A DNA stretch of 63,305 nucleotides, counting the filler, from Pseudomonadota bacterium (lineage in GTDB: Bacteria > Desulfobacterota > Desulfobacteria > Desulfobacterales > JBDRRP01), in the NCBI GenBank assembly GCA_043825735.1. It is 4 parts of 4 records of this genome, joined end to end, with 100 filler letters (N's around TTAATTAATTAA, not from the genome) between each part and the next. Parts side by side here need not be neighbours in the genome. Positions count along the whole stretch, not along the records: positions 29,705 to 57,579 come from JBDRRP010000084.1; 3 more parts are not named here. One strand, 5' to 3'. The position numbers were made by a program, and so were the translations under genes. Below the pieces are notes generated by a model. The model saw only the letters and a list, made by a program, of their open reading frames with translations, had not been told where the DNA came from and did not search any database. Below are positions 29,605 through 57,990 of this stretch, piece after piece (within the stretch, counting starts at the first letter, position 1; every line of letters starts with the position of its first letter).

Positions 29605-29704
29605 NNNNNNNNNNNNNNNNNNNNNNNNNNNNNNNNNNNNNNNNNNNNTTAATTAATTAANNNNNNNNNNNNNNNNNNNNNNNNNNNNNNNNNNNNNNNN
29701 NNNN
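29605..29704. other. Artificial contig-joining spacer
   Basis: 44 N + TTAATTAATTAA (stops in all six frames) + 44 N; identical to the other two spacers. Confidence 0.97.
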
Positions 29705-29958: not shown

Positions 29959-30087
29959 TCCACGAAATGAAATCAGGCATACAGAGCACTGTTTCCGGTA
30001 AAAAAGCGCGTAAACAAAAAAGGCCTTTTGAGCAAAACAATCCATAACGTTTGCAGAAACAGACAATTTTTGTTAGATATCGCAATC

Positions 30088-30903
30088 ATGATGGATGACA
30101 ATACAGACCTAACCAAGCGCCAATCCATAACCGCTTTTGTCGATGCCCTTCAGGCGCAAGGCCGCTACACCTTTACCAGAGGCGAGGCGATGGGCTCAGA
30201 CCGGTTCTCCGCCGTTGCCCTTGAAGCGGCCCTGAGGCGCCTCAAGCAACGCGGCAGGATCGCTCGTCCGCGGCGGGGGTTCTACGCGATTGTGCCCCTG
30301 GAATACAAGGAGGCCCAATGCCTGCCGGCCAGTTGGTTCATCGATGACCTGATGGGGTTTCTCGGGCAACCCTACTATGTCGGTTTACTGAGCGCCGCGG
30401 CCGTTTATGGGGCGGCGCATCAACAGCCGATGGATTTTCAGGTGGTGACCGATAGGGCGACCCGTCCGGTTCATGTCGGCCGCGTGAGAATCACCTTTCA
30501 TAAAAGCCGTTCCGTCGCCAAGTTGCCCACCGGTCGCATTCAGACTGAGACCGGCACCATGCGGGTCTCCACACCGGAGGCGACGGCCCTGGACCTTGTG
30601 CGGTTTACCGCCGCTGCAGGGGGGCTGAGCAACGTTGCCACCGTCTTGAGCGAGTTGGCCGAAAAAATCAGACCGGAAGAATGGGCTGCCACCATGGACC
30701 AATACGCCAGCCCAATCCTGCAAAGGGCCGGATACCTGCTGGAAATGGTGGGAAAGGACGACTTGGCCGCACCACTGGCCCAATGGCTTTCGCTCAGGCG
30801 TTACCGACCGGTGCCGCTTTCACCCGGGAAGAAGATTTCCAGTGAGCCGGCAGACCCCCGGTGGCGTGTCATCGCCAATGATACGCCGGAGATCGATCTT
30901 TGA
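30088..30903 (+). CDS. Type IV TA system AbiEi-family antitoxin (orphan)
   Basis: wHTH ...RIARPRRGFYAIVP, YYVGLLSAAAVYGA, RVSTPEATALDL, WRVIAN C-terminus. Confidence 0.85.
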   Translation: MMDDNTDLTKRQSITAFVDALQAQGRYTFTRGEAMGSDRFSAVALEAALRRLKQRGRIARPRRGFYAIVPLEYKEAQCLPASWFIDDLMGFLGQPYYVGLLSAAAVYGAAHQQPMDFQVVTDRATRPVHVGRVRITFHKSRSVAKLPTGRIQTETGTMRVSTPEATALDLVRFTAAAGGLSNVATVLSELAEKIRPEEWAATMDQYASPILQRAGYLLEMVGKDDLAAPLAQWLSLRRYRPVPLSPGKKISSEPADPRWRVIANDTPEIDL

Positions 30904-31045
30904 TTCCACGGCATTCTGAACGGCGCCTGTGTGAGAATATTCAAACTGCGACGAATGCCAAGGGAAATATGGGTGCAGGTTTAACTTGCTAAAATGCGCA
31001 GATACAACTACTTTAGGTAGCGATAACTGCGCAAAGGAGCAAGTC

Positions 31046-31846
31046 ATGCGAACCGCTGATTTTTTTGAAACCCACCCGGTTTTTGGTCACGCGGAGTTTG
31101 TTGCGGCTCACACGGCCAATGGACGCAGTGAATACACCAGCAACAACCTGCTGGCCAAACATCTGGCGTCCGGCCGCCTGATCCGCGTACGGCGCGGGCT
31201 TTATGCCGTGGTGCCGCGCGGGGTCGATCCGCAAAAGGCTGTCGTGGATCCGTATCTGCTGGCTTCAAGCCTGAGCGATGATGCCGTGGTCGCTTACCAT
31301 GGGGCCCTGCAGTTTCACGGAAAAACCTATTCGATTTGGCGGCGGGTGCACTACCTAACGGGCAGGCGGACGCGGCCATTTTCCTTTCGGGGAATGGAGT
31401 TTGTTCCCTTGCGGGTACCCCCGGCGCTTCGCAGCCTGCCCCGGTGGGGAGGCGGCGTCAACACGGTGTCCCACGCGGGCGGGAAAGCAAGGGTCACCAC
31501 CTTGGAGCGCACGTTGGTGGATGTCCTGGACAAGCCGGATAAATGCGGCGGATGGGAAGAGACCTGGCGGTCCCTTGAAATGGTGGAGTTTTTCGACCTC
31601 GATACCGTCATCGCCTATGCTACGGCGCTCGGCTCGTCTCTGACCGTTGCAAAGGTCGGGTTTTTCCTGGAGCAGCATCGCAAGGCGCTCATGGTGGAGG
31701 ACAAGCACCTGGCGACCCTTGCCGAAAGGGCGCCGAAGCAGCCCCGCTATCTTGACGGAACCCGCGAAGCCGGCAGGCTTCTTTCCCCATGGAATCTGGT
31801 TGTGCCCCAGTGGGTGCTGGACCGCCGCTGGCAGGAGGTGGCGTGA
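31046..31846 (+). CDS. Type IV TA system AbiEi-family antitoxin / transcriptional regulator
   Basis: LIRVRRGLYAVVP, AYHGALQFHG, VTTLERTLVDVL, WNLVVP; AGGAG RBS. Confidence 0.85.
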   Translation: MRTADFFETHPVFGHAEFVAAHTANGRSEYTSNNLLAKHLASGRLIRVRRGLYAVVPRGVDPQKAVVDPYLLASSLSDDAVVAYHGALQFHGKTYSIWRRVHYLTGRRTRPFSFRGMEFVPLRVPPALRSLPRWGGGVNTVSHAGGKARVTTLERTLVDVLDKPDKCGGWEETWRSLEMVEFFDLDTVIAYATALGSSLTVAKVGFFLEQHRKALMVEDKHLATLAERAPKQPRYLDGTREAGRLLSPWNLVVPQWVLDRRWQEVA

Positions 31847-32109
31847 CACTTTCCAGAGCAGAATTGGAACGGGAAACCGCTGCCACAGGGTTTCAGGCCG
31901 AACCCCTGGAAAAGGTGGCCAGACTGCTTGAATTGCTTCAATCCCTAAAAAGCCACCCTTTCCTGAAAGACCGATTTGCCCTCAAGGGCGGCACGGCCCT
32001 AAACCTTTTTTGGGCCGATGTGCCCCGGCTCTCAGTGGACCTGGAGGGTTCTCAGGGGACGTTGTTGACAAATGTATACTTATTTTATTGTCTCCAATTT
32101 CTTCATTGA
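31843..32109 (+). pseudogene. Truncated AbiEii nucleotidyltransferase toxin
   Basis: GTG overlaps the antitoxin stop; LKGGTALN...RLSVDL motif, after which homology breaks off at about residue 67. Confidence 0.85.
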
Positions 32110-32299
32110 TGCTGCCTACGACATGGCTGTCGAGACGCGCCGATCTGCCCAAACGTTTGGACAGATCGCACATCGATTTGGGGTCGCCCAAGCTATCCGG
32201 CTGGCATTGCCTTAGAAACCCTGCGCTTCGCTTGGGTTCCAGGCGAAAACCATAGTTGCTGGCGCAAAGAATTTAGATCGCGGCCTACGGCCACAATCT

Positions 32300-32322
32300 A
32301 AAGCCACCGGCTTTGCCGGTGG
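32300..32322. repeat. 23-bp hairpin-containing repeat, copy 1 (REP / IS200-IS605-end-like)
   Basis: aaagccaccggctttgccggtgg, identical at 44568-44590. Confidence 0.75.
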
Positions 32323-32635
32323 GCGTTTACTCCAACAATAGTCCTGAAAATACCCCCTCAAAATTGCTTTAAAACGCACTTTTCAGGTGCAAAATCGGCG
32401 GATTATGGAAAACATATGGAGTCAGGTATTCCCTTGGTCTGAGCACTTCAATCTTCTTGCGACCGCTGGCTTCAAGCACCCTGCCTCAAACCGGTGAAAG
32501 CCCGAACTCACCAGTTTTCTTGACAATATGGTTCATAGCCGATAACTTTTGACACCGCTCCCAACTGGCAACTCAAATCCGCTAACGGTTTCGATACACC
32601 ATGCGGATGCAAGAGGGCTTCAAGGAACTATCGTC

Positions 32636-33630: not shown

Positions 33631-34416
33631 GTGCCGGTTTCGACAATTTTTCACATCCCCCACGCTTCGACCGTGATTCCAGCAGAGCACCGCGCCGCCT
33701 TTCTGCTTTCGGACAGTGAACTGGGCGACCAAGTCCTGTGCATGACCGATCATTTCACCGACGAGTTGTTCAATTTGCCGGACCGAAGCGTTCAAAGGAT
33801 CGTCTACCCGGTCAGCAGGCTGGTATTGGACCCAGAGCGCTTTCTCGACGACGCCCAGGAGCCCATGGCCAAGAAAGGCATGGGTGTCATCTACGAAAAA
33901 ACGGTTGACGGTCGCCTACTCCGGGACAAACCGACCGAAAAGGAAAGAGCCGAGCTGCTTGAACGCTACTATCACCCCCACCACCAGAAATTTACCGAGG
34001 CAGTGGACCACGTGTTAGCTGCCACAGGCCGCTGCCTGATCATAGACTGCCACAGCTTTCCGGATGCCCCCCTACCCTACGAGGATGACCAAAACCCCAA
34101 CCGTCCGGACATCTGCATCGGGACCGATAGCTTTCACACTGACGAGGTCCTCTCAATCCTCACATTCAAAGTTTTTCAGGAAGTGGGGTTCTCGGTGGCA
34201 TTCAACCGCCCATTTGCCGGCACTATCGTGCCGATGAAATATTACCGCTGCACCAAAGCGGTTCAGTCGATCATGATCGAGATCAACCGCAAGCTTTACA
34301 TGAATGAGGAGACCGATGAAAAACTTTCCTCGTTTGACGAATTCGCTGGATCGGTTCAGGGGTGCTTGACCAAGTTGCTCAGTGATTACCTCAGACAAAC
34401 AGGCACACATCATTAA
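33631..34416 (+). CDS. N-formylglutamate amidohydrolase family protein
   Basis: HIPHAS, SRLVLDPER, YYHPHH, IDCHSF, RPDICIG, NRPFAG, MIEINR. Confidence 0.9.
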   Translation: MPVSTIFHIPHASTVIPAEHRAAFLLSDSELGDQVLCMTDHFTDELFNLPDRSVQRIVYPVSRLVLDPERFLDDAQEPMAKKGMGVIYEKTVDGRLLRDKPTEKERAELLERYYHPHHQKFTEAVDHVLAATGRCLIIDCHSFPDAPLPYEDDQNPNRPDICIGTDSFHTDEVLSILTFKVFQEVGFSVAFNRPFAGTIVPMKYYRCTKAVQSIMIEINRKLYMNEETDEKLSSFDEFAGSVQGCLTKLLSDYLRQTGTHH

Positions 34417-34432
34417 ATGAGACCGTACCGAT

Positions 34433-35974
34433 TTATGTGGCGACACCATGCGGGGTCGGTACTTCAAGCAGGCGCGCAATAAAACGGGCAAACGGCAAGA
34501 TGTCCTGCGTGACGCTGGCGCTTTCCAAGGCATCCATATAGTCGTCGCGCTTTTCAACCGGTATGACCGTCCAGGGATGCCCGCCGGCAGCCAGCATGAG
34601 GTTCATGATAAACCGGCCCATGCGGCCGTTGCCGTCCATGTATGGATGAATATAGACGAAAATGAAATGACCGAGGACAACCCGCACCGAAGGTTCCGCT
34701 TCTTCTCCAAGCTGATCGAAGAAGGCCGGCATGCAGTCCCGCACAGCCTCGTAGCGTGGCGGAACATGCCTTGAGCGCCGAATGAACACCTGTCCGTTTC
34801 GATAGCCGGCAAGGTCAGCCGGCTTGATTAAGCCGGCGGCGACTTCCGGTCCGAACATTTCCCGATACCAGTCGCGGTGACCCTCTTCACAGACGGTGCC
34901 GGGATTGGCACCTTCGAGGACCTTGCGGACACTGTGCCTGACAGACTGATACGCCTGCCAATATCCTCGTGCGGCCAACGCATTGCGCATCCGGCGGTCA
35001 TCTGTGCCTTCTTCAGGGTCCCACTGGCCGCTTCGAACCCGCTCGATCAGTTCCGGGCTGACCCGGTATCCCTCGATGGAAAGCGAGTGATAGGCATCCT
35101 TGACGTAATTGTCGTCGGTCGTTTTCATGTAGGCCTCGATGTCGACGGGACGATCCGGCGCCGCTGGAAAGGCGTCGATGATCACCTCGCGCATCTGTTG
35201 CCACATCAAGCGAATCCGGCTCGCATAGGGCGATCGGGCCGGCGCCGCCGGCACCGACAGGATGGAAGTTTCAAATGGATCGCTTTCTCGGACGTCGTAG
35301 CCAGCTGTCCGCATCGTCTTGACGATGTCGTCTGCGGCGCGGTTTCGTCCAATGTTGCGAAGCGCACCGGCAAGACGGCCGGCAACGGTGGAACGCCCTC
35401 CCTCCAGTAACGGTGCCAACACCTCGGAAGCATCGCCAATCGTGGCCAGGACGGCGCGGGCATCGATGGTGTGCTGCTGAAAAAACGACGGCCCGCAGCT
35501 CACCAGGCCCGCCGAAACGCTGAAAAGCCGCAGGCCGCTTTTCTCGACAAACTGACCTTCGGCGGGCAGCACCGCCCGCACATCAAGCAGAGATGTATCG
35601 TGCAGCAGTGCCGTAGCCCTGTTGCGCGCTTTCGGCGAGCGCACAAGCAGTTGATCCGGCACGGTCATGTTGCCCACATGAAGCAGCAGGGATTGCTCTG
35701 GCGAAAGGCAATAGTCTGTCCCAAAGCGCTGTCTCAAATAAACGGCGCAGAAATCCCAGAACGACGCATACCAGGCGGTGCTTTCCCCTGCGACCTCATC
35801 GGGTCGTGCAATCAGGTACCATCCCTTGATAATCTCTTTCAGAAAGCCGTTGCGAATCAGGCGCTCCCGATGGGTGCGCGTCAACTCGCGTGAGCGCAGG
35901 GCAACGGCCCCTCGTTTTTGGAAAGAGCGCAGAATCTCAAGGGAAACCGCCAGTTTTTCGTGTGGAGTGGTCAT
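34433..35974 (-). CDS. Fic family protein with an extended AbiEi-like N-terminal region
   Basis: HPYMDGNGRMGR Fic motif near the C-terminus; SLSIEGY motif. Confidence 0.9.
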   Translation of the reverse strand: MTTPHEKLAVSLEILRSFQKRGAVALRSRELTRTHRERLIRNGFLKEIIKGWYLIARPDEVAGESTAWYASFWDFCAVYLRQRFGTDYCLSPEQSLLLHVGNMTVPDQLLVRSPKARNRATALLHDTSLLDVRAVLPAEGQFVEKSGLRLFSVSAGLVSCGPSFFQQHTIDARAVLATIGDASEVLAPLLEGGRSTVAGRLAGALRNIGRNRAADDIVKTMRTAGYDVRESDPFETSILSVPAAPARSPYASRIRLMWQQMREVIIDAFPAAPDRPVDIEAYMKTTDDNYVKDAYHSLSIEGYRVSPELIERVRSGQWDPEEGTDDRRMRNALAARGYWQAYQSVRHSVRKVLEGANPGTVCEEGHRDWYREMFGPEVAAGLIKPADLAGYRNGQVFIRRSRHVPPRYEAVRDCMPAFFDQLGEEAEPSVRVVLGHFIFVYIHPYMDGNGRMGRFIMNLMLAAGGHPWTVIPVEKRDDYMDALESASVTQDILPFARFIARLLEVPTPHGVAT

Positions 35975-36273: not shown

Positions 36274-36396
36274 AAGGAAATTTGTGCGCCTCCGGCGCAT
36301 TCAAATCTTCCGCCACAAACCCGGCGGATAAATCTCGCCCCGACCAAAAAACGTATGAAACAAGGGGGTTGCTTCGGCAGCGCCCTTTTTCATTTT
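36274..36396 (+). repeat. ~123-bp direct repeat, copy 1: disrupted tRNA-Pro 3' end plus terminator (att-like)
   Basis: ttcaaatc...tctcgccccgacca matches the T-loop and acceptor 3' strand of tRNA-Pro; near-identical to 45910-46033. Confidence 0.8.
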
Positions 36397-36732: not shown

Positions 36733-36772
36733 ACCGCATAATTGTATACAATCCTGGATACAATTATGCGGT
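36733..36772. promoter_or_regulatory. Palindromic operator, probably for the downstream GntR regulator
   Basis: accgcataattgtat / atacaattatgcggt perfect 15-bp arms containing TTGTATACAA and TGGATACA boxes. Confidence 0.7.
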
Positions 36773-36889
36773 TTTGTCGTTTATGCGGAGATCTTGTCGA
36801 TTCATAAAATGTCTCCCCAAGATCACATCTTGGGTGAAAAGGATATAATTCCAGGTTGTTATGTAATTTTTCGGAACGTTTTCCAAGGC

Positions 36890-36904
36890 TGGCACGGACA
36901 TTGC
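36890..36904 (+). promoter_or_regulatory. Sigma-54 (-24/-12) promoter
   Basis: TGGCAC-GGACA-TTGC, exact match to the TGGCAC-N5-TTGC consensus, about 105 bp before the first gene. Confidence 0.8.
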
Positions 36905-37010
36905 CATTTTAAGACTCGGTATCGAAATAACGGATAGCCGGGATGTCGAGGGCGACAACCAACGATTACCGTGGCACCCGTGATCAACCAAGCACCCCCA
37001 GGAGCGCGTT

Positions 37011-37826
37011 ATGAAAACTTCAACCCTGATTTCCACCGCTCATATCATGGTTCGTCGGTCAGTCAATCATTCCGCCTTTAGACGCTTCGTAGAACTGACC
37101 ACCGGTCCCATCCTGTTGATCGGCGTGTGGTGGGTCGCCTATGCCGGTGAACTGGTTGATCCCAACCTGCTTCCGTCGCCGTTTGCCACCATCAGTGATA
37201 CCTGGGCCAATCTTCTCTCGGGGGACATTTTGAAAGATTTCTGGAGCACACTGCTTCTGGTTTCCAAGGCCTTTATATTTGCCGCAATTTTTGGCGTGCC
37301 CGCAGGGATTGCGGTGGGTGCCAACCAGAACATCTATCGATCCATTGAATTTGTCATCGATTTTTTCCGATCTACGCCGGCAACAGCAATGTTTCCCCTG
37401 TTTTTGCTGCTGTTTGGGTTAGGAGATTTTTCCAAAATCGCAGTGGCCGCGTTTTCGGCTTGGCTTATCATCGTTTTCAATGTCGCCTACGGCGTCATGA
37501 ACGCACGAAAAACCCGAATTCTGGCGGCACGGTCCATGGGCGCGTCATCGATTCGGATATTTTCCGATGTCATCTTCTACGAAACCTTGCCGCAGACGTT
37601 CGTTGGCTTGCGCACGGCAGTTTCGCTGACGCTTGTCGTCATTATCGTGGCTGAAATGTTCATCGGTGCCATGGATGGGTTGGGGCACCGAATCATCGAC
37701 GCGCAAATTTCCTATCAGTTGACTGATATGTACGGCTCGATCCTGGTGGCCGGCGCCATGGGATACGGCCTCAACTACTTCTTCCTCATGATCGAGAAAA
37801 TTATTGTTCATTGGTCGGGACATTAA
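37011..37826 (+). CDS. NitT/TauT family ABC importer permease
   Basis: LLPSP, FFRSTPA, EAA-like AARSMGAS loop, IVAEM...GLGH. Confidence 0.92.
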   Translation: MKTSTLISTAHIMVRRSVNHSAFRRFVELTTGPILLIGVWWVAYAGELVDPNLLPSPFATISDTWANLLSGDILKDFWSTLLLVSKAFIFAAIFGVPAGIAVGANQNIYRSIEFVIDFFRSTPATAMFPLFLLLFGLGDFSKIAVAAFSAWLIIVFNVAYGVMNARKTRILAARSMGASSIRIFSDVIFYETLPQTFVGLRTAVSLTLVVIIVAEMFIGAMDGLGHRIIDAQISYQLTDMYGSILVAGAMGYGLNYFFLMIEKIIVHWSGH

Positions 37827-37887
37827 ACCACCCGGCCTGGATGTGTAAACCCAATGCCCCATATGAAAACCACAGGAGAATCGTATC

Positions 37888-38889
37888 ATGAAAAAAATCT
37901 TTGGGCTTCTTTCAGTTCTGGCAATTTTCGGAATGCTTACTTTCAATGTCTCTTTTGCAAACGCCCAGTCGAAGAAGATGGAAAAAGTGGTGGCTGCCTG
38001 GCTGCCGATCATGCAGACGACGGCCTTCTATGTGGCGCTGGAGGAAGGATTGTTCGAGGAGGCCGGTATTGAGATCGTATCGCACAAAATGCAGTCTCCC
38101 AACCATATCATCGATGCATTGGTTGGCGGTCGAGCCGATTTCGGCCCCCCGGGTGCGGCGGCCGGGATCGCCATGTTGGCTGAGTCCAAATTCCCGGGCA
38201 CGTTCAAGGTCTTCGGTTTGCAGGGCGGCGGTATCAAAGTGAACCTCATCAACGACGGACTCATCGTCAAGGCCGACAGCGACATCAAGACTTTCGCTGA
38301 TCTTAAGGGGAAACGGTTGGGCCATGTGCCGGGGATTCAGTGGCGCACCATTTCAAAGCATATGGTGCGAGCGTTTGGGCTGGACCCGGACAATGACGTC
38401 ATCCTGACAGACCTGGCCGTAGCCATGCAGGTGCCGGCAGTCATTGGCGGCAGCGTCGATGCCACCCTATCGTTGGAACCGGTCGGATCCATCGCGGTCG
38501 CTTCGGGCAAGGCGAAGCGAGCCATGACCAATCCTGTAGCGACGGTTATCTCAGATCCCTTCTATTCAGGTGCCGCAGTGTTGACGACAAAGTTCATGAA
38601 GGAGCGCCCTGAGGTCGCCAAAAAGGTGGTCGAGGTCATCGACAAGGCGACGAAGTTAGCCATGGCGGATTTTGAAAAATACAAGGTTATCATCCCCAAG
38701 TACACCGCCATAAAATCCGATCAACTTCACCTGCTGGCAAAGCCCTATCTGAGGCCTTTTGACGAACTCAATGAAACAGACTTGAATTCCTACCAGGCGT
38801 TTGTGGATGTTTTTTACTCCGAAGGCGTTATGAAAGAGCGGATGGATGTCCGTCAAAAAATGTTGAAGCCGTCTGATCTCGGATTGTAG
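37888..38889 (+). CDS. NitT/TauT (SsuA/THI5-like) ABC substrate-binding protein
   Basis: Signal peptide; YVALEEGLFEEAGI, ADLKGKRLG, VDAT..LEP. Confidence 0.9.
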   Translation: MKKIFGLLSVLAIFGMLTFNVSFANAQSKKMEKVVAAWLPIMQTTAFYVALEEGLFEEAGIEIVSHKMQSPNHIIDALVGGRADFGPPGAAAGIAMLAESKFPGTFKVFGLQGGGIKVNLINDGLIVKADSDIKTFADLKGKRLGHVPGIQWRTISKHMVRAFGLDPDNDVILTDLAVAMQVPAVIGGSVDATLSLEPVGSIAVASGKAKRAMTNPVATVISDPFYSGAAVLTTKFMKERPEVAKKVVEVIDKATKLAMADFEKYKVIIPKYTAIKSDQLHLLAKPYLRPFDELNETDLNSYQAFVDVFYSEGVMKERMDVRQKMLKPSDLGL

Positions 38890-38925
38890 CACCATGAATC
38901 TCGGTATGGAGATGGGAGGTTTTCG

Positions 38926-39783
38926 ATGGCAAGTCCGATGAGGACCTTGGAACCGATCGGATCGGGGGAGGAGATGGCCCCCGGTCCGAAGGGCAAAATG
39001 GAAAAGCCCCGAAAGCGACAGACTTATATTACGGTCCGTGGACTCACGAAAGCCTTCGGTGACCTTGTTGTATACGATGGCTTCGATCTGGATCTGCCCC
39101 AAGGCGAGTTCATCTCGGTCTTCGGACCCAACGGCTGCGGGAAAAGCACCCTGATCAATTTGATCTCCGGGTTGACCCCCATAGATGGGGGGGAAGTGCT
39201 CTTTGATGGCCAAACCATCAAGGAAACCAGGATTTCTTATGTTTTTCAGAATTATCGCGAGGCGCTTTTCCCCTGGCTGCGCGCCATTGACAACATCCAT
39301 TATCCTTTAAAAATCAAAGGACTGCGCCGGCATGAGCGCAAAGCGCGGGTGGAACGTCTTCTGGATGATTTCGAGGTCAATTTCGACCTCAACGCCTATC
39401 CGTACTCCCTGTCCGGGGGGCAGCAGCAAATGGTCTCCATCCTCAGGGCCCTGGTAACGGAACCGGAGGTCTTGTTTCTGGATGAACCGTTTTCCGCCCT
39501 GGACTACGAGATGACGCTGTTCATGCGTGAGCAGATCCAGAAGATTTACATGAAGACCAAAATGACCATGTTGCTGGTTTCTCACGATCTGGAAGAAGCG
39601 GTGCAGTTGGCCAGTCGGGTGCTGCTGCTGACACGGCGGCCAACGCGCGTGGCCGATTTCGTGACGGTGGATCTTTCCTGGCCAAGAAATTCCAGGTCCA
39701 TTATCGATCCGCGCTTTGTGGACTTGAAAAGTCACTGCCTGTCGATTTTCAGACGCGAGGCGGCCTTGTTCAGGTCGGTGTGA
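38926..39783 (+). CDS. NitT/TauT family ABC importer ATP-binding protein
   Basis: GPNGCGKST, LFPWL, LSGGQQQ, LDEPFSALD, SHDLEEA. Confidence 0.93.
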   Translation: MASPMRTLEPIGSGEEMAPGPKGKMEKPRKRQTYITVRGLTKAFGDLVVYDGFDLDLPQGEFISVFGPNGCGKSTLINLISGLTPIDGGEVLFDGQTIKETRISYVFQNYREALFPWLRAIDNIHYPLKIKGLRRHERKARVERLLDDFEVNFDLNAYPYSLSGGQQQMVSILRALVTEPEVLFLDEPFSALDYEMTLFMREQIQKIYMKTKMTMLLVSHDLEEAVQLASRVLLLTRRPTRVADFVTVDLSWPRNSRSIIDPRFVDLKSHCLSIFRREAALFRSV

Positions 39784-39864
39784 ACAAAAACCGTCATCCC
39801 GGCCATTGGACCAGTGTTACCTCCGGCCGGTATCAATGGCGATTTGACACAATAAGGAGAAATC

Positions 39865-41556
39865 ATGTCGATGCCACCCGTTGAATTTCGTGCTGCCGTG
39901 GTACAGACTCTGGCGGCATTGGGAGATGTCGAAGAAAACATCCGGCTTCTGAAGACCTACACCCGGGAAGCGGTTCGTCAGAACGCGCGGTTGGTGGTTT
40001 TCCCCGAGTGTATGAACACCGGTTATCTTTTCGACTCCAAGGCACACTGCGCCGACCTGGCAGAACTTGTCTCCGGTCGTTATGTATCGGCCATGGCCGA
40101 ACTCTGCCGTACGCACAATATCCATATGGCCAGCGGCTTCACAGAGCGTGACGAGACCTCGGGAAAGATTTTCAATTCAGGCCTTCTCCTCGACCCGGCC
40201 GGAGATCTGATCCTGCATTATCACAAGCAGTTTTTGGCCACCCATGATCAGAATTGGTTTGAATTCGGAGAGAATGGGTGCCCAGTGGTGGATACCGAAC
40301 TGGGCCGGATCGGTCTGCTCATCTGCTTTGACGGCCGCATCCCTGAAATTGCCCGGTGCCTCGCATTGCAGCAGGCCGATATTGTCGTCGACATGGCCAA
40401 TTTCTTCGCTATGGACCAAGCCGATCTGTGGGTGCCGGCACGGGCGTACGAGAATGGGATGTGGTTTGTTGCGGCAACCAAATCAGGGGTGGAAAGGAGT
40501 ATTTACTACCCCGGAGGGAGCATGATCGTATCCCCCGATGGTGACATTGCCGCCCGTATACCCTGTGATCGTCACGGCGTGGTCAGTGCTGCCGTGTGCC
40601 CTGGCGCTGCCCGAAAAAAACAATGGTTTATTTCCGGTGACCGGTTTCTCGATCGCCGCCCGGATACCTACGCCATGATCCAGCAACCGGTTGCCGAAAC
40701 GCCCTTGAACGATATCCTCGCCACACCGCTTGTGCCGGAGAGCGCAACAACGAAGGGCGCAGCCGTTCAGGCCCACGCCACGCAGGCGCCGGCGAGCCTC
40801 GACGAGGCCATCGCCATGGTTGACCACACGGCCAAGCTTGGCGTCAAAGTGCTGGTGCTGCCCCAGTTTTTCAGTCTACCCACCTGGCTTCCGAATCAGG
40901 CGGAAGCCGAAACCGCCCAAAAAGAAATGGCCGGGGTGCGGCGGCAACTGAGCGCCATTGCATCCAGCCACAAGACCATTATCGTGGTGCCGGGTTTCGA
41001 CGCGGCCGCTGACGGACTGGTCCAGTCTGCGGTGATCATCGGCCCGGACGGTGAGGAAATCGGTCGCTACCATCAGGTGCATCCCGAGCCTGAAATTCGT
41101 GCTTTCGTTGTGCCCGGCGACCGTTTCTCAGTGTTTGAAACACCCTACGGCCGTTTGGGGATTCTGTTGGGCTACGATGGGATGTTCCCCGAAGCGAGCC
41201 GGGTCCTATCGTTGATGGGCGCCGATATGATTGCCTGGTCAAGTGCCTGGCGTGATCCGAAGGATCGCTCCCTGCTGGTGGTGCCTAAGGCCGAAGACAA
41301 CCGGATTTTTCTCATCTGCGCCAACCGCACGGACAGTCCCTGTCCCGGCGGTTCTCTGGTGGTGCCGCCCACGGGTTTCCCCCATTGGGATCTTACAGTG
41401 TCGGCCCCCCCAAACAGCCGCCATGGCGCGGTCATGCCGGGATTTGTTAATTTGGCGCTGGCAAGGCAAAAGTCGATGATTCCCGGGGTAGACATGCTGC
41501 GAAACCGCATGGTGCACACCTACGGGCCCATCGTGGAGACTGCGCCGACGCGGTGA
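39865..41556 (+). CDS. Tandem-domain carbon-nitrogen hydrolase (nitrilase superfamily)
   Basis: Domain 1 has the E-K-C triad (FPEC, YHKQ, ICFD); domain 2 repeats the fold with LPQF, YHQV, LGYD. Confidence 0.9.
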   Translation: MSMPPVEFRAAVVQTLAALGDVEENIRLLKTYTREAVRQNARLVVFPECMNTGYLFDSKAHCADLAELVSGRYVSAMAELCRTHNIHMASGFTERDETSGKIFNSGLLLDPAGDLILHYHKQFLATHDQNWFEFGENGCPVVDTELGRIGLLICFDGRIPEIARCLALQQADIVVDMANFFAMDQADLWVPARAYENGMWFVAATKSGVERSIYYPGGSMIVSPDGDIAARIPCDRHGVVSAAVCPGAARKKQWFISGDRFLDRRPDTYAMIQQPVAETPLNDILATPLVPESATTKGAAVQAHATQAPASLDEAIAMVDHTAKLGVKVLVLPQFFSLPTWLPNQAEAETAQKEMAGVRRQLSAIASSHKTIIVVPGFDAAADGLVQSAVIIGPDGEEIGRYHQVHPEPEIRAFVVPGDRFSVFETPYGRLGILLGYDGMFPEASRVLSLMGADMIAWSSAWRDPKDRSLLVVPKAEDNRIFLICANRTDSPCPGGSLVVPPTGFPHWDLTVSAPPNSRHGAVMPGFVNLALARQKSMIPGVDMLRNRMVHTYGPIVETAPTR

Positions 41557-41610
41557 GCGCCTCGCGACACAACGGGCCAATGCTGCCGTGATGGTCAGGC
41601 CGCGACCCTT

Positions 41611-43485
41611 TTGGTGATGATGTTAATGGAGAAGGCCGTGACCCTATCTGCCAAAAATCTGCCATTGTCTCTTTGCATCCAGAATCTGATCGACGGGTAT
41701 CAATCCGGCACTGTCGCCATTTTAGACGTGTTGGACAACGTGTTGGAAAGCGTCTCCGCTGAAGACACGCACTGTATCTGGATTCGGTTGGTGGCCACGG
41801 AGATGGTCCGTGACAAGGCCAAGACCCTATCGGCACGCTGGGAAAAACTGGATCGGCAGCACCGTGCCGCCGAAATGCCTCTTTACGGTGTGCCATTTGC
41901 AGTCAAAGACAATATTGACGTTGCCGGCATGCCCACCACGGCCGGATGCCCTGAGTACGCTTATGTGCCGACCCGTTCGGCAACGGTGGTTACGCGTCTT
42001 GAGGCGGCGGGTGCCGTGTTGATCGGCAAGACCAATATGGATCAGTTCGCCACGGGCCTTACGGGCACCCGATCCCCTTACGGTCCCTGTAAAAACGCAT
42101 TTGACCCAAAATATATTTCCGGTGGATCCAGCGCCGGCTCCGGTGTTGCCGTGGCCCGGGGGCTGGTGTCATTTGCACTGGGGACGGATACGGCCGGTTC
42201 CGGCAGGGTGCCGGCCGCATTAAACAATGTGGTGGGGTTGAAGCCCTCTCGCGGGCTGGTCTCCACGGCCGGTGTCGTGCCGGCCTGCCGATCCCTCGAC
42301 TGCGTGTCGATTTTTGCCAACAACTGCTTGGACGCCGCCGCGGTGCTGAAGATCATCGCCGGCCCGGATGGCAAGGACTGTTTTTGTCGCAGACACCCCC
42401 CGGCCAATGACCGTCGGCTGAATCGGCCAATTGTGTTCGCGATCCCTGATGATCTGGAATTTTTCGGTGACAGGTTGAATGCCCAACTCTTTGAGCGCGC
42501 CGTGCAGCAGATGGTGGCCATGGGAGGGACAGCCGTTCAAGTGGACTACACACCGTTCAAAGATGCTGCCAGGCTACTTTATGACGGCCCATGGGTTGCC
42601 GAGCGGTGGGCCGCCTTGGAAGCATTTATTTCAACGCAGCCCGAGGCGGTTCATCCCGTTGTGAGTAAAATCATCAGAGAGGGGAAAAAATACTCTGCCG
42701 CCGATGCCTTCAAGGCAGCCTATTACCTCCAGGACTTGAGATACCAATCGGACGAAATCTTCTCGCGGATCGACTTTCTGATGGTGCCCACGGTGCCCAC
42801 CATCTACACCATCGATGTGGTAGGCCACGACCCTGTGGGCACCAACAAAAACCTTGGGTATTACACCAATTTCGTCAACCTGCTCGATCTTGCCGCCATT
42901 GCCGTACCGTCTGGGTTCAGAACCGATGGACTGCCCTTTGGCGTCTCATTAATCGGACCGGCTCTCGATGACAACTTCCTGTTGTCGGTCGGGGGGGCGT
43001 TTCAAGATGCGACGGCAAAAGATGCGAAATCCACGGTGCCATTATCCATTCTGCCCAAGAATGGGCCATCGCCCCCGGAAACAGTGCCATTGGCCGTGGT
43101 CGGGGCCCACTTGAGCGGCCTCGCCCTAAACCATGAACTGATCGATATAGGGGCATCCTTCTGCTGTCAATGCCGAACAGCGCCGGTTTATCGCCTTTTC
43201 CATCTGCCGAAGACTACCCCCCCAAAACCGGGGCTGGTGCGGGTGGCCACCGGAGGGCAGCGTATCGATATCGAGGTATGGCGCGTACCATTGACGCGAT
43301 TGGGGGCCTTCATCATGAAAATCCCCGCACCCCTCGGCATCGGCACCCTCCTTCTTGACGATGGTCAGAACGTCAAGGGGTTTATCTGTGAGGGGTCGGC
43401 AGCGGATGGCGCTCGCGATATCACGGCGTTTGGCGGATGGCGCCAATACATTGCGCAGTGCATGGGGGAGGATTTTGGTATATGA
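41611..43485 (+). CDS. atzF: Allophanate hydrolase (amidase-signature domain plus C-terminal domain); true start may be GTG 41638
   Basis: AVKDNID, GKTNMDQFATGL, GGSSAGS, GTDTAGSGRVPA, LGYYTNFVNLLD and C-domain LAVVGAHLSG...DITAFGGWR. Confidence 0.93.
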   Translation: MVMMLMEKAVTLSAKNLPLSLCIQNLIDGYQSGTVAILDVLDNVLESVSAEDTHCIWIRLVATEMVRDKAKTLSARWEKLDRQHRAAEMPLYGVPFAVKDNIDVAGMPTTAGCPEYAYVPTRSATVVTRLEAAGAVLIGKTNMDQFATGLTGTRSPYGPCKNAFDPKYISGGSSAGSGVAVARGLVSFALGTDTAGSGRVPAALNNVVGLKPSRGLVSTAGVVPACRSLDCVSIFANNCLDAAAVLKIIAGPDGKDCFCRRHPPANDRRLNRPIVFAIPDDLEFFGDRLNAQLFERAVQQMVAMGGTAVQVDYTPFKDAARLLYDGPWVAERWAALEAFISTQPEAVHPVVSKIIREGKKYSAADAFKAAYYLQDLRYQSDEIFSRIDFLMVPTVPTIYTIDVVGHDPVGTNKNLGYYTNFVNLLDLAAIAVPSGFRTDGLPFGVSLIGPALDDNFLLSVGGAFQDATAKDAKSTVPLSILPKNGPSPPETVPLAVVGAHLSGLALNHELIDIGASFCCQCRTAPVYRLFHLPKTTPPKPGLVRVATGGQRIDIEVWRVPLTRLGAFIMKIPAPLGIGTLLLDDGQNVKGFICEGSAADGARDITAFGGWRQYIAQCMGEDFGI

Positions 43486-44234
43486 TGCCGGCAGCAGCGA
43501 CAGGCATCAACGTTGGCCGTTCACCGGCAATTACCCCATACGAAATTATGAACAGCTCAAGACAAAGCCTTAGTGCCAAAATCATTGCCACGTTGAAGGA
43601 CCGTGTTCTGCAGTGGGAATACCTGCCCGGGCAGCGGTTAACCGAAGAGGGCTTGAGCAAAGAGTTCGAAGTGAGCCGGAGCCCTGTGAGAGAGGCGCTA
43701 CGGGTGTTGGCGGCCAATGGCTTCATTGAAAAGAAAGTCCACCAGGGATATTTGGTCAAGCAGTTGGATGCCGAAGAAATAAAGGACCTGTATGAACTGC
43801 GCATGGCCCTTGAAATTTACGTTGTGGAGCGTCTCGCCGTCGTAGGAATCCGCGAAGAAATAAAACAGGCGCTGGTTGACCACTGGTCGACGGCGATTGA
43901 TTCCGGGGCGAATCTTTCCAATGAAACGCTATCCACCATGGATCAATCTTTCCATGAGGCCTTGGCCGTGGAATTGGGCAATCGGGTCCTCGCTCAACAG
44001 TTGGCGGCGATCAACGAAAGACTCAGCCTTTTCAGGGTCATCGACTTTTCAATTGAAGACCGGGCCAGGAGTACTGCCCGTCAGCACTTGGACGTCTTGG
44101 AACGTATTGCCGCTCACGATATTCTTGGAGCTCGTGAGGCGATCACAAATAATATCCAGATCAGCCGTGACAACGTGCACAAGACCCTAACGGAAGCGCT
44201 GGGGCGGGCCTACTTGAGACAGCGGGCATCTTAA
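43482..44234 (+). CDS. GntR family (FCD) transcriptional regulator
   Basis: PGQRLTE...VSRSPVREAL HTH, DQSFH, QHLDVL; ATGA overlap with the atzF stop. Confidence 0.92.
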   Translation: MMPAAATGINVGRSPAITPYEIMNSSRQSLSAKIIATLKDRVLQWEYLPGQRLTEEGLSKEFEVSRSPVREALRVLAANGFIEKKVHQGYLVKQLDAEEIKDLYELRMALEIYVVERLAVVGIREEIKQALVDHWSTAIDSGANLSNETLSTMDQSFHEALAVELGNRVLAQQLAAINERLSLFRVIDFSIEDRARSTARQHLDVLERIAAHDILGAREAITNNIQISRDNVHKTLTEALGRAYLRQRAS

Positions 44235-44567
44235 CCGCCTTAATCAACAGAAAAACCAGACCTCATTACATATAGAGAGGGCATTGAGGGAGCTGGGGAC
44301 GCCCCAATAATTTCGATTCCCTTGATCACATCCGGAAAATATTTCCGTTCATTGGTGATCGCCGTTATAGAATGGGGAATTGGGGTCGCCAAGCTATCTG
44401 ACTGACATTCCAACAATAATCTCGAAAATTCCCCATCCAGATTACCCTTTAACGCACTTTTTGGGCGCAAAACCGGCGGTTTAGGGCGGATTCGCCGCAG
44501 AACTGAAGGCTGTTTGACCCAGGCATACCGCAAAGTACCAGCCGCGCCTCGAACCGCTTTTGAATTG

Positions 44568-44590
44568 AAAGCCACCGGCTTTGCCGGTGG
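44568..44590. repeat. 23-bp hairpin-containing repeat, copy 2
   Basis: Identical to 32300-32322. Confidence 0.75.
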
Positions 44591-44752
44591 TCGTCCACTT
44601 ACGCAACAATGAACGCACTTGACGTTTAGTGCTGAAATGGGGGTCGCAACCCCCGTTAGCGAACGAAACGTCAAATCTATGGAACCCATGCATATTTGAC
44701 ACTTCGTATCATTAAAGGGGGTAAATTTACCTATAACGGAACAGAGCGTACA

Positions 44753-45550
44753 ATGAGAACAGCCGATTTCTTCGATACACACCCAGTTTTCACGCTGGAT
44801 GAGGCGGTCAAAACACTCGCACCAGTAGGCGGACGTTCCGGAACGGTTGAAAGACTGAAGCATCATTTGAATACCGGCCGCCTTAAGCGCGTTTCTCGGG
44901 CAGTGTACGCTGTCGTGCCCCCTGGCCAATCAACCGAAGGATTGCAGCCGGATCCATATTTGGTCGCGGCTGCCGTCCGCCCCGATGGTGTTTTCTCTTA
45001 TCACAGCGCCCTGGGTCTACTCGGTGCCGCCCATTCCGTGTGGAAGCGGCACACGCTTTTTGTAGAAAAGCGTCGAAAACCAATTCAGCTAAATAACGTC
45101 GAGATCTGTTTTCTGGAGCACCCGGGTCCGATGCGAACTGCAACCTGTTCAAGGCAGGGCATCCGTCGGGTCGAATATGGCGGCCGGCTTCTCAAGGCCA
45201 CAGGCCCTGAACGCACGTTGGTTGAAGGTTTCAGGAGACCGGCGGCTGTTGGCGGATTGGAGGAGTTAGTCAACGCCGCTAGCGGATTTGCGGTGCTTGA
45301 TCTCGATCTGCTTCAGCAGATCCTTCACTGTTACGGCATCGCAAACCTGTGGGCAGCTATCGGCTGGTTCCTTGAACAATTCCGCAGAACCTTCCACGTA
45401 TCCGAAGACGTGCTCGAACGTTTTGTCCACCATGCCCCTAGGGCGCCGCAATACCTGGAGCGTAATCGGCGAAATGGCGTGCTGGCAGCGCGATGGAACA
45501 TTCTGCTGCCGCAAGAACTCATGAATTTGGGAGGGCCGGATGAGCGTTAG
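44753..45550 (+). CDS. Type IV TA system AbiEi-family antitoxin, paralog of 31046..31846
   Basis: Same MRTADFF.THPVF start; SYHSALGLLG, ERTLVE, WNILLP. Confidence 0.85.
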   Translation: MRTADFFDTHPVFTLDEAVKTLAPVGGRSGTVERLKHHLNTGRLKRVSRAVYAVVPPGQSTEGLQPDPYLVAAAVRPDGVFSYHSALGLLGAAHSVWKRHTLFVEKRRKPIQLNNVEICFLEHPGPMRTATCSRQGIRRVEYGGRLLKATGPERTLVEGFRRPAAVGGLEELVNAASGFAVLDLDLLQQILHCYGIANLWAAIGWFLEQFRRTFHVSEDVLERFVHHAPRAPQYLERNRRNGVLAARWNILLPQELMNLGGPDER

Positions 45551-45911
45551 CCTTGAGTACCTGCAGCGCTGTGCTGAGCAGACCGGCTATGCCACCGGGC
45601 CGATAGAAAAAGTCGTCCGGCTCGGAGACCTCGCCGCAGACATAGCACGGCACCCGGTCCTGGGCAGCGTTTTGGCACTTAAAGGCGGCACTGCGCTGAA
45701 CCTGTGCTTTGGCCCTCCCTCACGACTTTCCCTGGATCTCGATTTCAACTATATCGGGCACCTCGATCGGGAGAGCATGCTTGCAGATCGGCCGTTAGTG
45801 GAACAAGTCCTTATCGAACTTGCCCGCCGCAAGGGGTATCGCGTTTGGTTGGACGAATTTGAGACAAAGTCGGAACCCGCCACAAATCCGGCGGGTAAAG
45901 CTCGCTTCTAA
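45540..45911 (+). pseudogene. Truncated AbiEii nucleotidyltransferase toxin
   Basis: LKGGTALN...RLSLDLDFNY motif, but only 123 aa and ending at the att-like repeat. Confidence 0.8.
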
Positions 45912-46033
45912 GGAAGCTTGTGCGCCTCCGGCGCATTCAAATCTTCCGCCACAAACCCGGCGGATAAATCTCGCCCCGACCAAAAAACGTATGAAACAAG
46001 GGTGTTGCTTCGGCAACGCCCCTTTTTCATTTT
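45910..46033 (+). repeat. ~124-bp direct repeat, copy 2: disrupted tRNA-Pro 3' end plus terminator (att-like)
   Basis: Near-identical to 36274-36396, offset 9636 bp. Confidence 0.8.
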
Positions 46034-53998: not shown

Positions 53999-54340
53999 TT
54001 ATTTGTATTTCCTGGACAGCGTCAGACCGGCCTTGGATTTCTTGACGAAGAAGCGGTTGCCTTCCACGAACCCGTGCTCCTCCACCAGCGCCGCCGGGAT
54101 AATGATGCTGCCGCGCTTGCCCACGACCACTTCCTTGGAAATCTCTTTTTCAGCCTTCTTGCCGCCGCGCCCTGTTTTGATGGCCGGTATGGCGCCGGTC
54201 TCCATCAGTGCGTTCGTGTATGCCACCGTCAATTGAGTCGAGGTCTTGAAGCCGAAGTGGGCCATGATTTCCTTTTGATCCACGGCGTCCTTTACCATCT
54301 TGATGAGCTGGGCGGGGTCGGCTTTGATTCGTTTGGGCAT
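53999..54340 (-). CDS. Small DNA-binding protein with a C-terminal AbrB/MazE-like domain
   Basis: VVVGKRGSIIIP...GFVEGNRFFV swapped-hairpin pattern; GGAGA RBS. Confidence 0.75.
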   Translation of the reverse strand: MPKRIKADPAQLIKMVKDAVDQKEIMAHFGFKTSTQLTVAYTNALMETGAIPAIKTGRGGKKAEKEISKEVVVGKRGSIIIPAALVEEHGFVEGNRFFVKKSKAGLTLSRKYK

Positions 54341-54876
54341 AGTGGGTTCTCCGTTCAGGGGTTATCGTTGTCAGGTCTTTATCAGGTCGTAATTCTCATC
54401 ATCGGTGTGTCATTCTCAACATACTGTAATGAAATAGAAAAATGAGTGCATGACGATTATGACGATACAACAACGGAAATATTTTCAGTTCGTCGACTTC
54501 TGAAAAGGCCTCATAATCTGAAAGTATAGGAATGAGAATGGTAAATTGCGGTTTTCGCATACGGGACGGCGGCGCGGAACGATAGGCGTTATTGCGGACT
54601 GGGCAATTGGAATCCTCATACGGTTATTTGTCTCGTATTCACTGATTCTCTCATTCATAACCTTACCATTCCAGGCCGGCGGTAGATTTCACATATTGAC
54701 AGGGCGTTCAAAACGTCGAAAAGTAAGGCCACCGATCAGAACAAGCCACTTCCCTAAACAGATGCAAGATCCAAACACAATTTGAGATGGGATTTAGTAG
54801 GTATGTTGAAAAGCGAATTCTCATCTCCTCTCCAGAGGGCTGCTGAAGAATTTTGGGAATAACAAAAAAGCCTTCC

Positions 54877-55473
54877 TTATAGATTCCCACCATTCACAAT
54901 TATTATAATTATTTTTTCAAATGGGAATTTACTGCCCGGACATTTTGTGGGGCTCAGCATTTTATGCATAAATATATTTTCAACAGGAATTTTGTATTCT
55001 TCTATAAGAGCCCTAATTAAATTTACCAATGAATTAAGTTGAGCAGTCGTCGGGTCATGAATTTCAAAATTTCCAACCAATGCAATGCCTATTGCTTCTT
55101 TATTGATACCCCTATTTTTAGTATGTGCCCCTTCGTTTTGCTGACGCCACCTTCTTGACACTTCAATAAACCCATCAGGTAAAATTCTACCATTATTAAT
55201 TAAAAAATGATATCCTACATCATCCCAATTATTCATTTTTACATGTAATTCTAAAATATTTTCAAGAGAATCTTCCAAAGATGCAGTATGGTGGATAATT
55301 ATATACCGCCATTTTTTATTTTTATAATCTGTTTTAATAGTATCACTGATAGATGGCAGAGAAGTGTCAATATTATGGCAGAAGTAGTCTTCAATTACAT
55401 AGATAATAATTATAAATGCAAGCAAAAAGATAATATAACTAATAGAATTAAATAGTACCCTACGAGTTTTCAT
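54877..55473 (-). CDS. Membrane-anchored N-acetylmuramoyl-L-alanine amidase (Amidase_2/PGRP-like)
   Basis: IIIHHTA, DVGYHFLI, GAHT, IGIALVGNF, H...TKCPG zinc-ligand pattern; N-terminal TM. Confidence 0.92.
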   Translation of the reverse strand: MKTRRVLFNSISYIIFLLAFIIIIYVIEDYFCHNIDTSLPSISDTIKTDYKNKKWRYIIIHHTASLEDSLENILELHVKMNNWDDVGYHFLINNGRILPDGFIEVSRRWRQQNEGAHTKNRGINKEAIGIALVGNFEIHDPTTAQLNSLVNLIRALIEEYKIPVENIFMHKMLSPTKCPGSKFPFEKIIIIIVNGGNL

Positions 55474-55480
55474 AAATTCA

Positions 55481-57579: not shown

Positions 57580-57679
57580 NNNNNNNNNNNNNNNNNNNNN
57601 NNNNNNNNNNNNNNNNNNNNNNNTTAATTAATTAANNNNNNNNNNNNNNNNNNNNNNNNNNNNNNNNNNNNNNNNNNNN
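57580..57679. other. Artificial contig-joining spacer
   Basis: 44 N + TTAATTAATTAA + 44 N. Confidence 0.97.
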
Positions 57680-57990
57680 CGGAAAGGGTTCCTGCGCATG
57701 ACCGACAAAGATGTAATGCCGCCCATTGCAAGCATTGACGAGAAATATCAGATGATGGCGCGGTTTATGGAAATGATTGATATGCCGCCAGATAAGCGCC
57801 CACCGCAGTTTCACGAAATCAAGTCAATATTGCTCAGTTCTACGCCCTAAATTCTCTCATTTAGTGATTTTTTGATTGACAAGAGCCCGACATTTTCTTT
57901 AAGCTACAAACACCTCCACATCGGCATAGGGCCTTGTCATGGACTAACGGGCACCCCACCAAGACGAGGCCCTCTCTTTTTCTGGACAGC

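Follow-up and report, generated by a model that had tools for sequence, protein, structure and literature searches.

The window analysed here, a stretch of 63,305 nucleotides (nt) from the genome of a Pseudomonadota bacterium of the Desulfobacterales (assembly GCA_043825735.1), contains an operon of six genes, all located on the + strand (Table 1). It encodes the permease, the periplasmic binding protein and the ATPase of an ATP-binding cassette (ABC) importer, a nitrilase-superfamily protein of 563 amino acids (aa) designated nit2, the allophanate hydrolase AtzF, and a transcription regulator of the GntR/FCD type. The subject of this work is nit2 and the route by which it may supply AtzF with allophanate; the importer family marked by the binding protein is referred to as ABC1. 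The window consists of four contigs joined by runs of N, with spacers at 29605-29704, 57580-57679, and 60320-60419. The operon is located on contig C84 (window positions 29705-57579), and arguments from gene neighbourhood are valid only inside that span. The genome has a length of 6.8 Mb and a guanine plus cytosine (GC) content of 57.5%, and is 100% complete by marker genes. Its rpoB product is 78-79% identical to proteins named in their source as Desulfobacterales or Desulfobacteraceae, which makes the anaerobic host assumed in the initial annotation plausible.

The gaps between the genes are 61, 36, 81, 54, and -49 nt, the last pair overlapping; the true start of the GntR/FCD regulator is probably downstream of position 43437. 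No convincing internal terminator was seen on inspection of the operon. All six genes were found where the initial annotation had placed them, behind the sigma-54 element that it had noted. The makeup of the importer, namely an NMT1/SsuA-like binding protein whose N-terminus resembles a signal peptide, one BPD_transp_1 permease, and one ATPase, fits the transporter class that we take to be NitT/TauT. Every substrate-specific equivalog (taurine, sulfonate, nitrate, SaoXPA) scored below its cut-off. The binding protein is 61-83% identical to its counterparts in related loci.

Table 1. Features of the operon and of its control and flanking regions (window coordinates).
Feature	Position	Strand	Remarks
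117-nt repeat D1, upstream copy	36274..36390	+	96% identical to 45910-46026; ends in a hairpin, then a T-run
Inverted repeat with GntR-type operator	36733..36772	.	TTGTATACAA at 36742-36751; second half-site-like sequence TGGATACAAT
Sigma-54 -24/-12 element	36890..36904	+	TGGCACGGACATTGC; 106 nt 5' of the first ATG
ABC permease, NitT/TauT type	37011..37826	+	BPD_transp_1 60 bits; best NCBIfam matches SaoP, TauC, SsuC, all below cut-off
Periplasmic binding protein	37888..38889	+	NMT1 77 bits; SsuA_fam 110 bits (below cut-off)
ABC ATPase	38926..39783	+	ABC_tran 109 bits
nit2, 563 aa	39865..41556	+	CN_hydrolase (PF00795) 251 bits (cut-off 23), in two stretches
nit2, N-terminal nitrilase-fold domain	39865..40719	+	E48, K121, C154, E161 kept
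nit2, C-terminal nitrilase-fold domain	40720..41556	+	Q334, Q404, Y437 at the triad positions
Allophanate hydrolase AtzF (amidase-signature domain and AH_C domain)	41611..43485	+	TIGR02713, NF006043, AH_C
GntR/FCD transcription regulator	43437..44234	+	GntR and FCD profile matches
117-nt repeat D1, downstream copy	45910..46026	+	With the upstream copy, brackets the operon and an AbiEi/AbiEii-fragment pair

A distinctive feature of nit2 is the presence of two nitrilase-fold domains, whose alignment with each other contains 78 identities in 304 columns. In the N-terminal domain, E48, K121, and E161 are present in all 119 homologues compared and C154 in 118 of them, and these residues align with the triad region of PH0642, the best match of this domain among PDB sequences (E = 7e-33). 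Judging from these residues, the N-terminal domain is predicted to be catalytically competent. The triad positions of the C-terminal domain are occupied differently: position 334 is Q in 74, L in 28, and E in 8 of the 119 homologues, Q404 is found in 117, and Y437 in 95, with H as the alternative residue and C never among the five commonest residues listed there. The same homologues share invariant residues that are this domain's own (H406, D438, E443, R446, D478-R480, R488, and D490). Apparently, the C-terminal domain is a catalytically dead pseudo-enzyme that retains the fold. Since proteins of the nitrilase superfamily are habitually dimeric, the dead domain can be read as a second subunit, and it probably serves as a built-in partner.

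The three-dimensional model of nit2 constructed using AlphaFold has a predicted local distance difference test score of 92.7 and a predicted template modelling (TM) score of 0.92, and places both domains in one compact unit. The best structural match of the N-terminal domain, which is modelled with the alpha-beta-beta-alpha fold, is the Pyrococcus horikoshii amidase 6ypa (TM score 0.93-0.95, root-mean-square deviation 1.5-2.2 Å); D-carbamoylases, formamidase, and N-carbamoylputrescine amidase come next. In profile searches, nit2 matched CN_hydrolase only and was under the cut-offs for AguB, formamidase, aliphatic amidase, and deaminated-glutathione amidase. It has no homology to the biuret hydrolase BiuH (NF050097), which has an isochorismatase fold; therefore, any BiuH-like role of nit2 would be that of an analogue and not of a family member. 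At least 480 homologues of nit2 were found in the protein collection at E ≤ 1e-20, and the names of the 120 listed are generic throughout. The nearest homologues are proteobacterial with 64-70% identity, and one further protein shows 78%. The initial annotation had allowed for nit2 being an already characterised enzyme of a described pathway. Sequence, structure and literature searches, the last with a coverage that excluded subscription journals, turned up neither a characterised family member nor a publication that describes the family or the pathway.

The gene downstream of nit2 is, by its profile scores, a bona fide atzF: the product reaches 797 bits with TIGR02713 (cut-off 511), 833 bits with NF006043 (cut-off 487), and 165 bits with AH_C, it carries the amidase signature GGSSAGS at residue 171, and allophanate hydrolysis is predicted for it. 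This is the only copy above the cut-off in the genome. It had been claimed that the operon lacks every known supplier of allophanate, and this was borne out not only for the operon but genome-wide. No urea or guanidine carboxylase is above the cut-off in the genome (the best match has 481 bits, with a cut-off of 1304), the best match to the BiuH family has 49.5 bits and 27-28% identity, AtzD has no match, AtzE is likewise not present, and nitrile hydratase has no match in the genome by tblastn, with queries that did match 10 control loci. The known routes to allophanate (carboxylase, cyanuric acid, BiuH, and nitrile hydratase) were thus ruled out for this genome by the searches. Because urea carboxylase, BiuH, AtzD, and nitrile hydratase were not found, nit2 is left as the sole candidate for supplying allophanate among known enzyme types. 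In the AtzF tree, which has an unresolved backbone and neither shows nor excludes a single origin, the enzyme of the window is nearest to AtzFs linked to nit2.

A scan for nit2 over species-representative genomes gave 48 loci, comprising 43 two-domain orthologues (at least 45% identity), four distant proteins (29-37%), and one fragment. The module of importer and nit2 was found in 43 loci of proteobacteria, cyanobacteria, and actinobacteria, and the importer adjoins nit2 in about 36-40 loci. Cultured carriers include Herminiimonas contaminans, Chelatococcus reniformis, Hansschlegelia beijingensis, and Paraburkholderia fynbosensis. AtzF, 42-57% identical to that of the window, is present within the fetched flanks at 13 of the 43 loci, and within approximately 11 kb of nit2 at 16 after extra sequence had been fetched (L046 via L068, L009 via L062, and L007 via L069). 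At eight loci, atzF is contiguous with the module and on the same strand, in three gene orders, being located either 5' of the importer or 3' of nit2; L091, found later, is a ninth case of the contiguous type, with the order nit2-gntR-atzF. The conserved linkage of nit2 to atzF that the initial annotation had anticipated is therefore seen in several arrangements. Other amidase-signature genes without AH_C were found at L020, L027, L037, and L038.

At the level of whole genomes, AtzF is above the cut-off in 34 of the 46 nit2 genomes, compared with 1 of 14 control genomes, whereas urea carboxylase is present in 11 of the 46 only. In ten genomes with a nit2-atzF cluster (eight with contiguous atzF and two with atzF approximately 6 kb away), no BiuH-family match was found, in line with the expected linkage without biuH; such matches are present in 22 of the 36 other nit2 genomes. 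The same ten genomes contain no carboxylase and a single AtzD. These genomes are interrelated, and the counts describe a pattern and not a statistical test.

Several arrangements around nit2 can be noted. Stand-alone AH_C frames are present in two nit2 operons, one overlapping the nit2 stop codon by 4 nt (L030:11239-11643) and the other at L033:6868-7251; they are a possible sign that nit2 and AH_C are directly linked, functionally or physically. In a Burkholderiales metagenome-assembled genome (MAG; L004:1-11581), the importer-nit2 module is preceded directly, with no change of strand, by a group of genes that comprises atzF, a third NitT/TauT importer, AtzD (535 bits), an AtzE split into two pieces, and a gene of the HpxZ/AtzH-like type. 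At L023, L025, L029, L031, L032, L036, and L037, a second NitT/TauT importer, a canonical nitrile hydratase, and BiuH/TrtA-like hydrolases lie approximately 2-7 kb from nit2; at L031, atzF and a urea/guanidine carboxylase come next. The BiuH/TrtA-like hydrolases have 92-266 bits, under the BiuH cut-off, and their hosts include Paraburkholderia and cyanobacteria. These clusters may represent an island that handles related compounds of the cyano or guanyl type. In a Herminiimonas genome, an AtzF-GntR pair away from nit2 is located beside a different, single-domain CN_hydrolase protein of 355 aa and a transporter of the lactate permease family (L064:4593-10425); here, too, a nitrilase-fold enzyme is paired with AtzF.

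Searches with the binding protein covered 1,202 genomes (one not scorable) and metagenomes. Carriers were few: the order of Herminiimonas yielded 7 among 401 genomes, its class 2 among 400, and the class of Chelatococcus 3 among 401; the metagenome scan gave four short loci, two of them assessable. The gene 3' of the importer orthologues, which are 61-79% identical, is nit2 in five cases (four already known and L091) and a split-beta nitrile hydratase (NHase) in seven (L087, L088, L089, L092, L093, L096, and L097); at three further orthologues the contig ends and the next gene is not assessable. Nit2 is absent from all four genomes tested (three of the NHase type and one with the importer at a contig end).

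At L092, the genes for permease, binding protein, ATPase, NHase (beta-N, beta-C, alpha), BiuH (421 bits), and AtzF (777 bits) follow each other on one strand. This is the layout of the window with NHase and BiuH in the slot of nit2; therefore, nit2 replaces NHase plus BiuH and not BiuH alone. At L087, the importer is followed by NHase, BiuH (401 bits, cut-off 370), and a CobW-type GTPase, while at L088 and L089, NHase is followed by a HupE/UreJ metal permease and the operon contains no amidase. A bona fide BiuH was found in all four assessable genomes of the NHase type, and AtzF is above the cut-off in the three that were tested (G092, G410, and G334). In the tree of binding proteins, those from the NHase context nest among those from the nit2 context in at least two supported places, and the protein of the window belongs to a clade with 99% support that holds eight rows of nit2 context and two of NHase context. 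This intermixing argues for the same ligand in both contexts.

The split-beta NHase was located at L087:9963-11211, L088:9944-11345, L089:7627-8982, L092:6720-8010, L096:1900-3166, and L097:1166-2240. In this subfamily, described as a three-subunit cobalt NHase, the beta subunit is encoded in two frames, as in thiocyanate hydrolase. The alpha subunit reaches 214-228 bits, under the cut-offs for both NHase (250) and thiocyanate hydrolase (291), and genes for metal supply (CobW or HupE/UreJ) adjoin the NHase. Probably, the importer-linked split-beta NHase represents an undescribed substrate class.

Several things can be observed directly: which genes are present, which catalytic residues are intact and which are lost, the fold, the conservation of the linkage, and the swap of nit2 for NHase plus BiuH. 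Support for function comes entirely from gene context, from which we infer each enzymatic reaction as well as what the cargo is. At the NHase loci, L088 and L089 included, the partner that the importer always has is the hydratase, which argues for a nitrile as the cargo; the amidase of the displaced set is a bona fide BiuH, which points to biuret as the hydrated amide; and AtzF follows, which suggests allophanate as the end point. The nitrile that fits is most likely N-cyanourea, or dicyanamide after two hydrations. Among the ureides proposed in the initial annotation, the displacement thus favours the cyano-urea type, and biuret, triuret, and guanylurea less so.

We therefore consider that the operon may be an acquired nitrogen-scavenging unit with a sigma-54 promoter and a GntR/FCD regulator as its gate, in which an N-cyano cargo is converted to allophanate by nit2 and then degraded by AtzF; the probability of this reading is, in our estimate, approximately 0.45. 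The NitT/TauT-type importer would take up an N-cyano compound that is one hydration away from biuret, namely N-cyanourea or possibly dicyanamide. The N-terminal domain of nit2 (E48-K121-C154) would then hydrolyse it in one step to allophanate and NH3 by chemistry of the nitrilase type (R-CN + 2 H2O -> R-COO- + NH3, where R is H2N-CO-NH-), with the dead C-terminal fold in the role that a second subunit plays in the dimers usual for the nitrilase superfamily. AtzF would turn the allophanate into 2 NH3 and 2 CO2, so that all three nitrogens would be recovered. A wider proposal, which we regard as possible but rather doubtful, is that of an undescribed pathway for the assimilation of N-cyano compounds (N-cyanourea/dicyanamide), distributed from cyanobacteria to a sulfate-reducer lineage. 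In it, one ABC importer would serve two interchangeable enzyme sets, a fused active/dead "pseudo-heterodimeric" nitrilase and a thiocyanate-hydrolase-like cobalt NHase with BiuH, which would converge on allophanate and AtzF; AH_C might dock onto nit2 and hand over the labile intermediate.

Several observations weigh against the N-cyano reading. The nearest sequences and structures of the N-terminal domain are amidases and carbamoylases and not classical nitrilases, and nit2 is below all curated nitrilase cut-offs (213 bits versus 500 for the archaeal nitrilase NF040852, and 58 versus 503 for Nit6803, TIGR04048). AtzF is missing from the flanks at 27 of the 43 loci, and it was not found in 12 of the 46 nit2 genomes, mostly MAGs. 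In Paraburkholderia and cyanobacteria, where it stands beside a second importer, a canonical NHase and BiuH-like genes, nit2 may act on a sister compound. We know of no natural source of N-cyanourea, and a literature search on cyanourea gave chemistry only and no biology. In addition, nit2 and a bona fide BiuH are present together in 16 of the 46 genomes; therefore, nit2 is not simply a substitute for BiuH. This coexistence weakens the option, raised in the initial annotation, that nit2 is a non-homologous replacement for BiuH: nit2 does occupy the feeder slot, but the slot corresponds to NHase plus BiuH.

The serious alternative is that nit2 is an amidohydrolase of biuret (or triuret/carboxybiuret) and a non-homologous analogue of BiuH, with biuret carried by the importer, allophanate formed by nit2, and the degradation completed by AtzF. 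The kinship of the N-terminal domain with small-amide amidases and carbamoylases speaks for it, as does the distribution of BiuH-family matches, which are absent from the ten nit2-atzF cluster genomes. At L004, where the module stands behind a full atzF-AtzD-AtzE-AtzH-like cluster, a biuret cargo fits equally well; biuret is a known by-product or stray intermediate in the cyanuric acid (AtzD-AtzE) setting. Biuret and cyanourea are, moreover, near-isosteric, and one binding protein might take both. However, an NHase cannot use biuret, and it directly follows seven importer orthologues, including those of the amidase-free operons; the binding proteins of both contexts are mixed in the tree; and the BiuH accompanying nit2 in the 16 genomes would be redundant. 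On balance, a biuret cargo appears less likely than an N-cyano cargo, of which it is the main rival.

An explanation in which nit2 and then AtzF act on another diamide or cyano-amide, of the malonamide/malonamate or cyanoacetamide type, with the AtzF-like enzyme taking the mono-amide acid, seems improbable. It draws on the fact that NF040852, whose characterised member presumably prefers aliphatic dinitriles, is the best curated match of the N-terminal domain, and on the weak acceptance of malonamate by AtzF. Yet AtzF here and in related loci is far above the cut-offs of the allophanate hydrolase equivalogs and retains AH_C, and the amidase of the displaced set, as a bona fide BiuH, points to biuret and allophanate and not to malonyl compounds. 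Alternatively, nit2 and AtzF could be independent neighbours, with nit2 taking an unrelated amide, a carbamoyl compound or cyanamide straight to ammonia and AtzF serving another route. The AtzF-free flanks and the many mixed islands with a second NitT/TauT importer, canonical NHase, BiuH-like genes, M20 peptidase or urea carboxylase would agree with independence. We nevertheless give it little credence: an AtzF that is roughly single-copy lies within approximately 11 kb of nit2 at 16 of 43 loci and is contiguous at eight, with one promoter and operator; AtzF of this genome would be left without a substrate; and AH_C-only frames are present inside nit2 operons.

As for the control region, the sequence TGGCACGGACATTGC contains GG-N10-GC within TGGCAC-N5-TTGC and is located at a suitable distance upstream. 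TGGCAC-N5-TTGC occurs once in the window, where 0.21 matches are expected, and 20 of 100 shuffled sequences contain at least one match, so this single match is weak evidence when taken alone. Among 46 related loci, nine have TGGCAY-N5-TTGC 5' of the gene that opens the operon, and a divergent GAF-sigma-54 activator is present at nine related loci. No sigma-54 activator is located beside the operon studied here; the query of the Herminiimonas type with a GAF domain gave 47 matches in the genome, the best of them 41% identical and on another contig. Of 11 promoter regions from GntR-linked relatives, 7 contain the putative operator motif T[TG]GTATAC[CA]A, in most cases immediately 3' of the -12 element, and at 15 loci, the window's own contig among them, nit2 is found together with a GntR gene. 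Given this recurrence, the promoter and operator design is conserved along with the genes. No Rfam family, the guanidine riboswitch included, matches contig C84.

The horizontal acquisition of the operon is well supported. Neither the operon nor a two-domain nit2 was found in 40 relatives of the same genus, family or order, where only single-domain matches of approximately 33% identity are present. The GC content of the operon, 55.5%, is unremarkable for this genome. The operon also looks mosaic: in sequence and in gene order (permease, binding protein, ATPase), its transporter part matches alphaproteobacterial and Alcanivorax versions, with binding proteins up to 83% identical, while nit2 and AtzF are closest to betaproteobacterial versions, in which the order of the importer genes is ATPase, permease, binding protein. 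Of the mobile module claimed in the initial annotation, the acquisition stands, whereas no integrase, transposase or conjugation genes were seen among the frames scanned on C84, a scan that some small frames fell outside.

The operon is surrounded by an accessory, defence-type neighbourhood. AbiEi-like antitoxin genes are present in the regions 30028-32109 and 44696-45911; they are 35% identical to each other, and a truncated AbiEii toxin fragment comes after each of them. Short repeats that resemble one another are located at 32295-32408 and 44409-44599, and a gene with a Fic domain lies upstream of the operon on the - strand (34433-35974). The 117-nt repeat D1 has a third copy, 91% identical, on contig C124 (G000:C124:320-417). 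The repeat, which ends in a terminator-like hairpin, has a fold z-score of -2.85 and no Rfam match; possible readings of D1 are a small RNA, a terminator module, and a scar left by recombination. A gene of the N-formylglutamate amidohydrolase family (33631-34416; FGase 188 bits) is separated from the operon by the Fic gene, and no link between this family and the operon was seen in related loci. Further downstream, the GC content of the window falls to 29-38% at positions 54001-58000, a patch that adjoins an N-acetylmuramoyl-L-alanine amidase gene (54877-55473) and is probably foreign DNA.

AtzF is the shared last step in the use of urea, guanidine, cyanuric acid, and biuret, and many genomes carry it without a known supplier. 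A new family of feeder enzymes would give a role to such orphan AtzF genes, as in the nit2 genomes, of which 34 have AtzF and 11 urea carboxylase. It would also name a substrate class not considered so far in nitrogen cycling, with a bearing on cyanamide, dicyandiamide, and triazine fertiliser residues. Nit2 is also a good illustration, within the nitrilase superfamily, of a pseudo-enzyme partner joined by fusion, and its exchange for NHase plus BiuH makes the hypothesis directly testable. The logic of the pathway, in which an importer and a feeder hydrolase lead to AtzF, is already known from the biuret, cyanuric acid, and guanidine routes. What is new is the fused active/dead feeder of the nitrilase superfamily, its equivalence to NHase plus BiuH and, probably, the substrate class.

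Several described systems come close to the operon. In the BiuH-AtzF biuret pathway (BiuH structures 6xjm, 6azo, 5bk6), a feeder amidohydrolase makes allophanate for AtzF in nitrogen scavenging. BiuH even sits between the same importer and AtzF at L092, and follows the importer and NHase at L087. However, BiuH has an isochorismatase fold, whereas nit2 has a nitrilase fold with a fused dead domain and takes the place of NHase as well as of BiuH. The relation between the two enzyme sets resembles that between the nitrilase route and the route of NHase plus amidase, since the same frame between importer and AtzF holds either of them and the net nitrile reaction would be the same; here, both nit2 and the split-beta NHase are non-standard members, under the curated cut-offs of their families. 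The amidases of P. horikoshii and P. abyssi (1j31 PH0642, 6ypa, 7ovg, 3ivz) have the E-K-C triad in common with the N-terminal domain of nit2. They are archaeal single-domain homodimers of approximately 262 aa, 28-30% identical to nit2; they lack a pseudo-domain, and neither AtzF nor an importer is linked to them. The cyanuric acid pathway AtzD-AtzE(G)-AtzH-AtzF ends at AtzF too, and the importer-nit2 module directly follows such a cluster at L004; its enzymes are unrelated to nit2, and neither AtzD nor AtzE is present in the genome studied here. Finally, urea or guanidine carboxylase (with CgdAB) acting with allophanate hydrolase shares the terminal AtzF step, whereas no carboxylase is above the cut-off in this genome.

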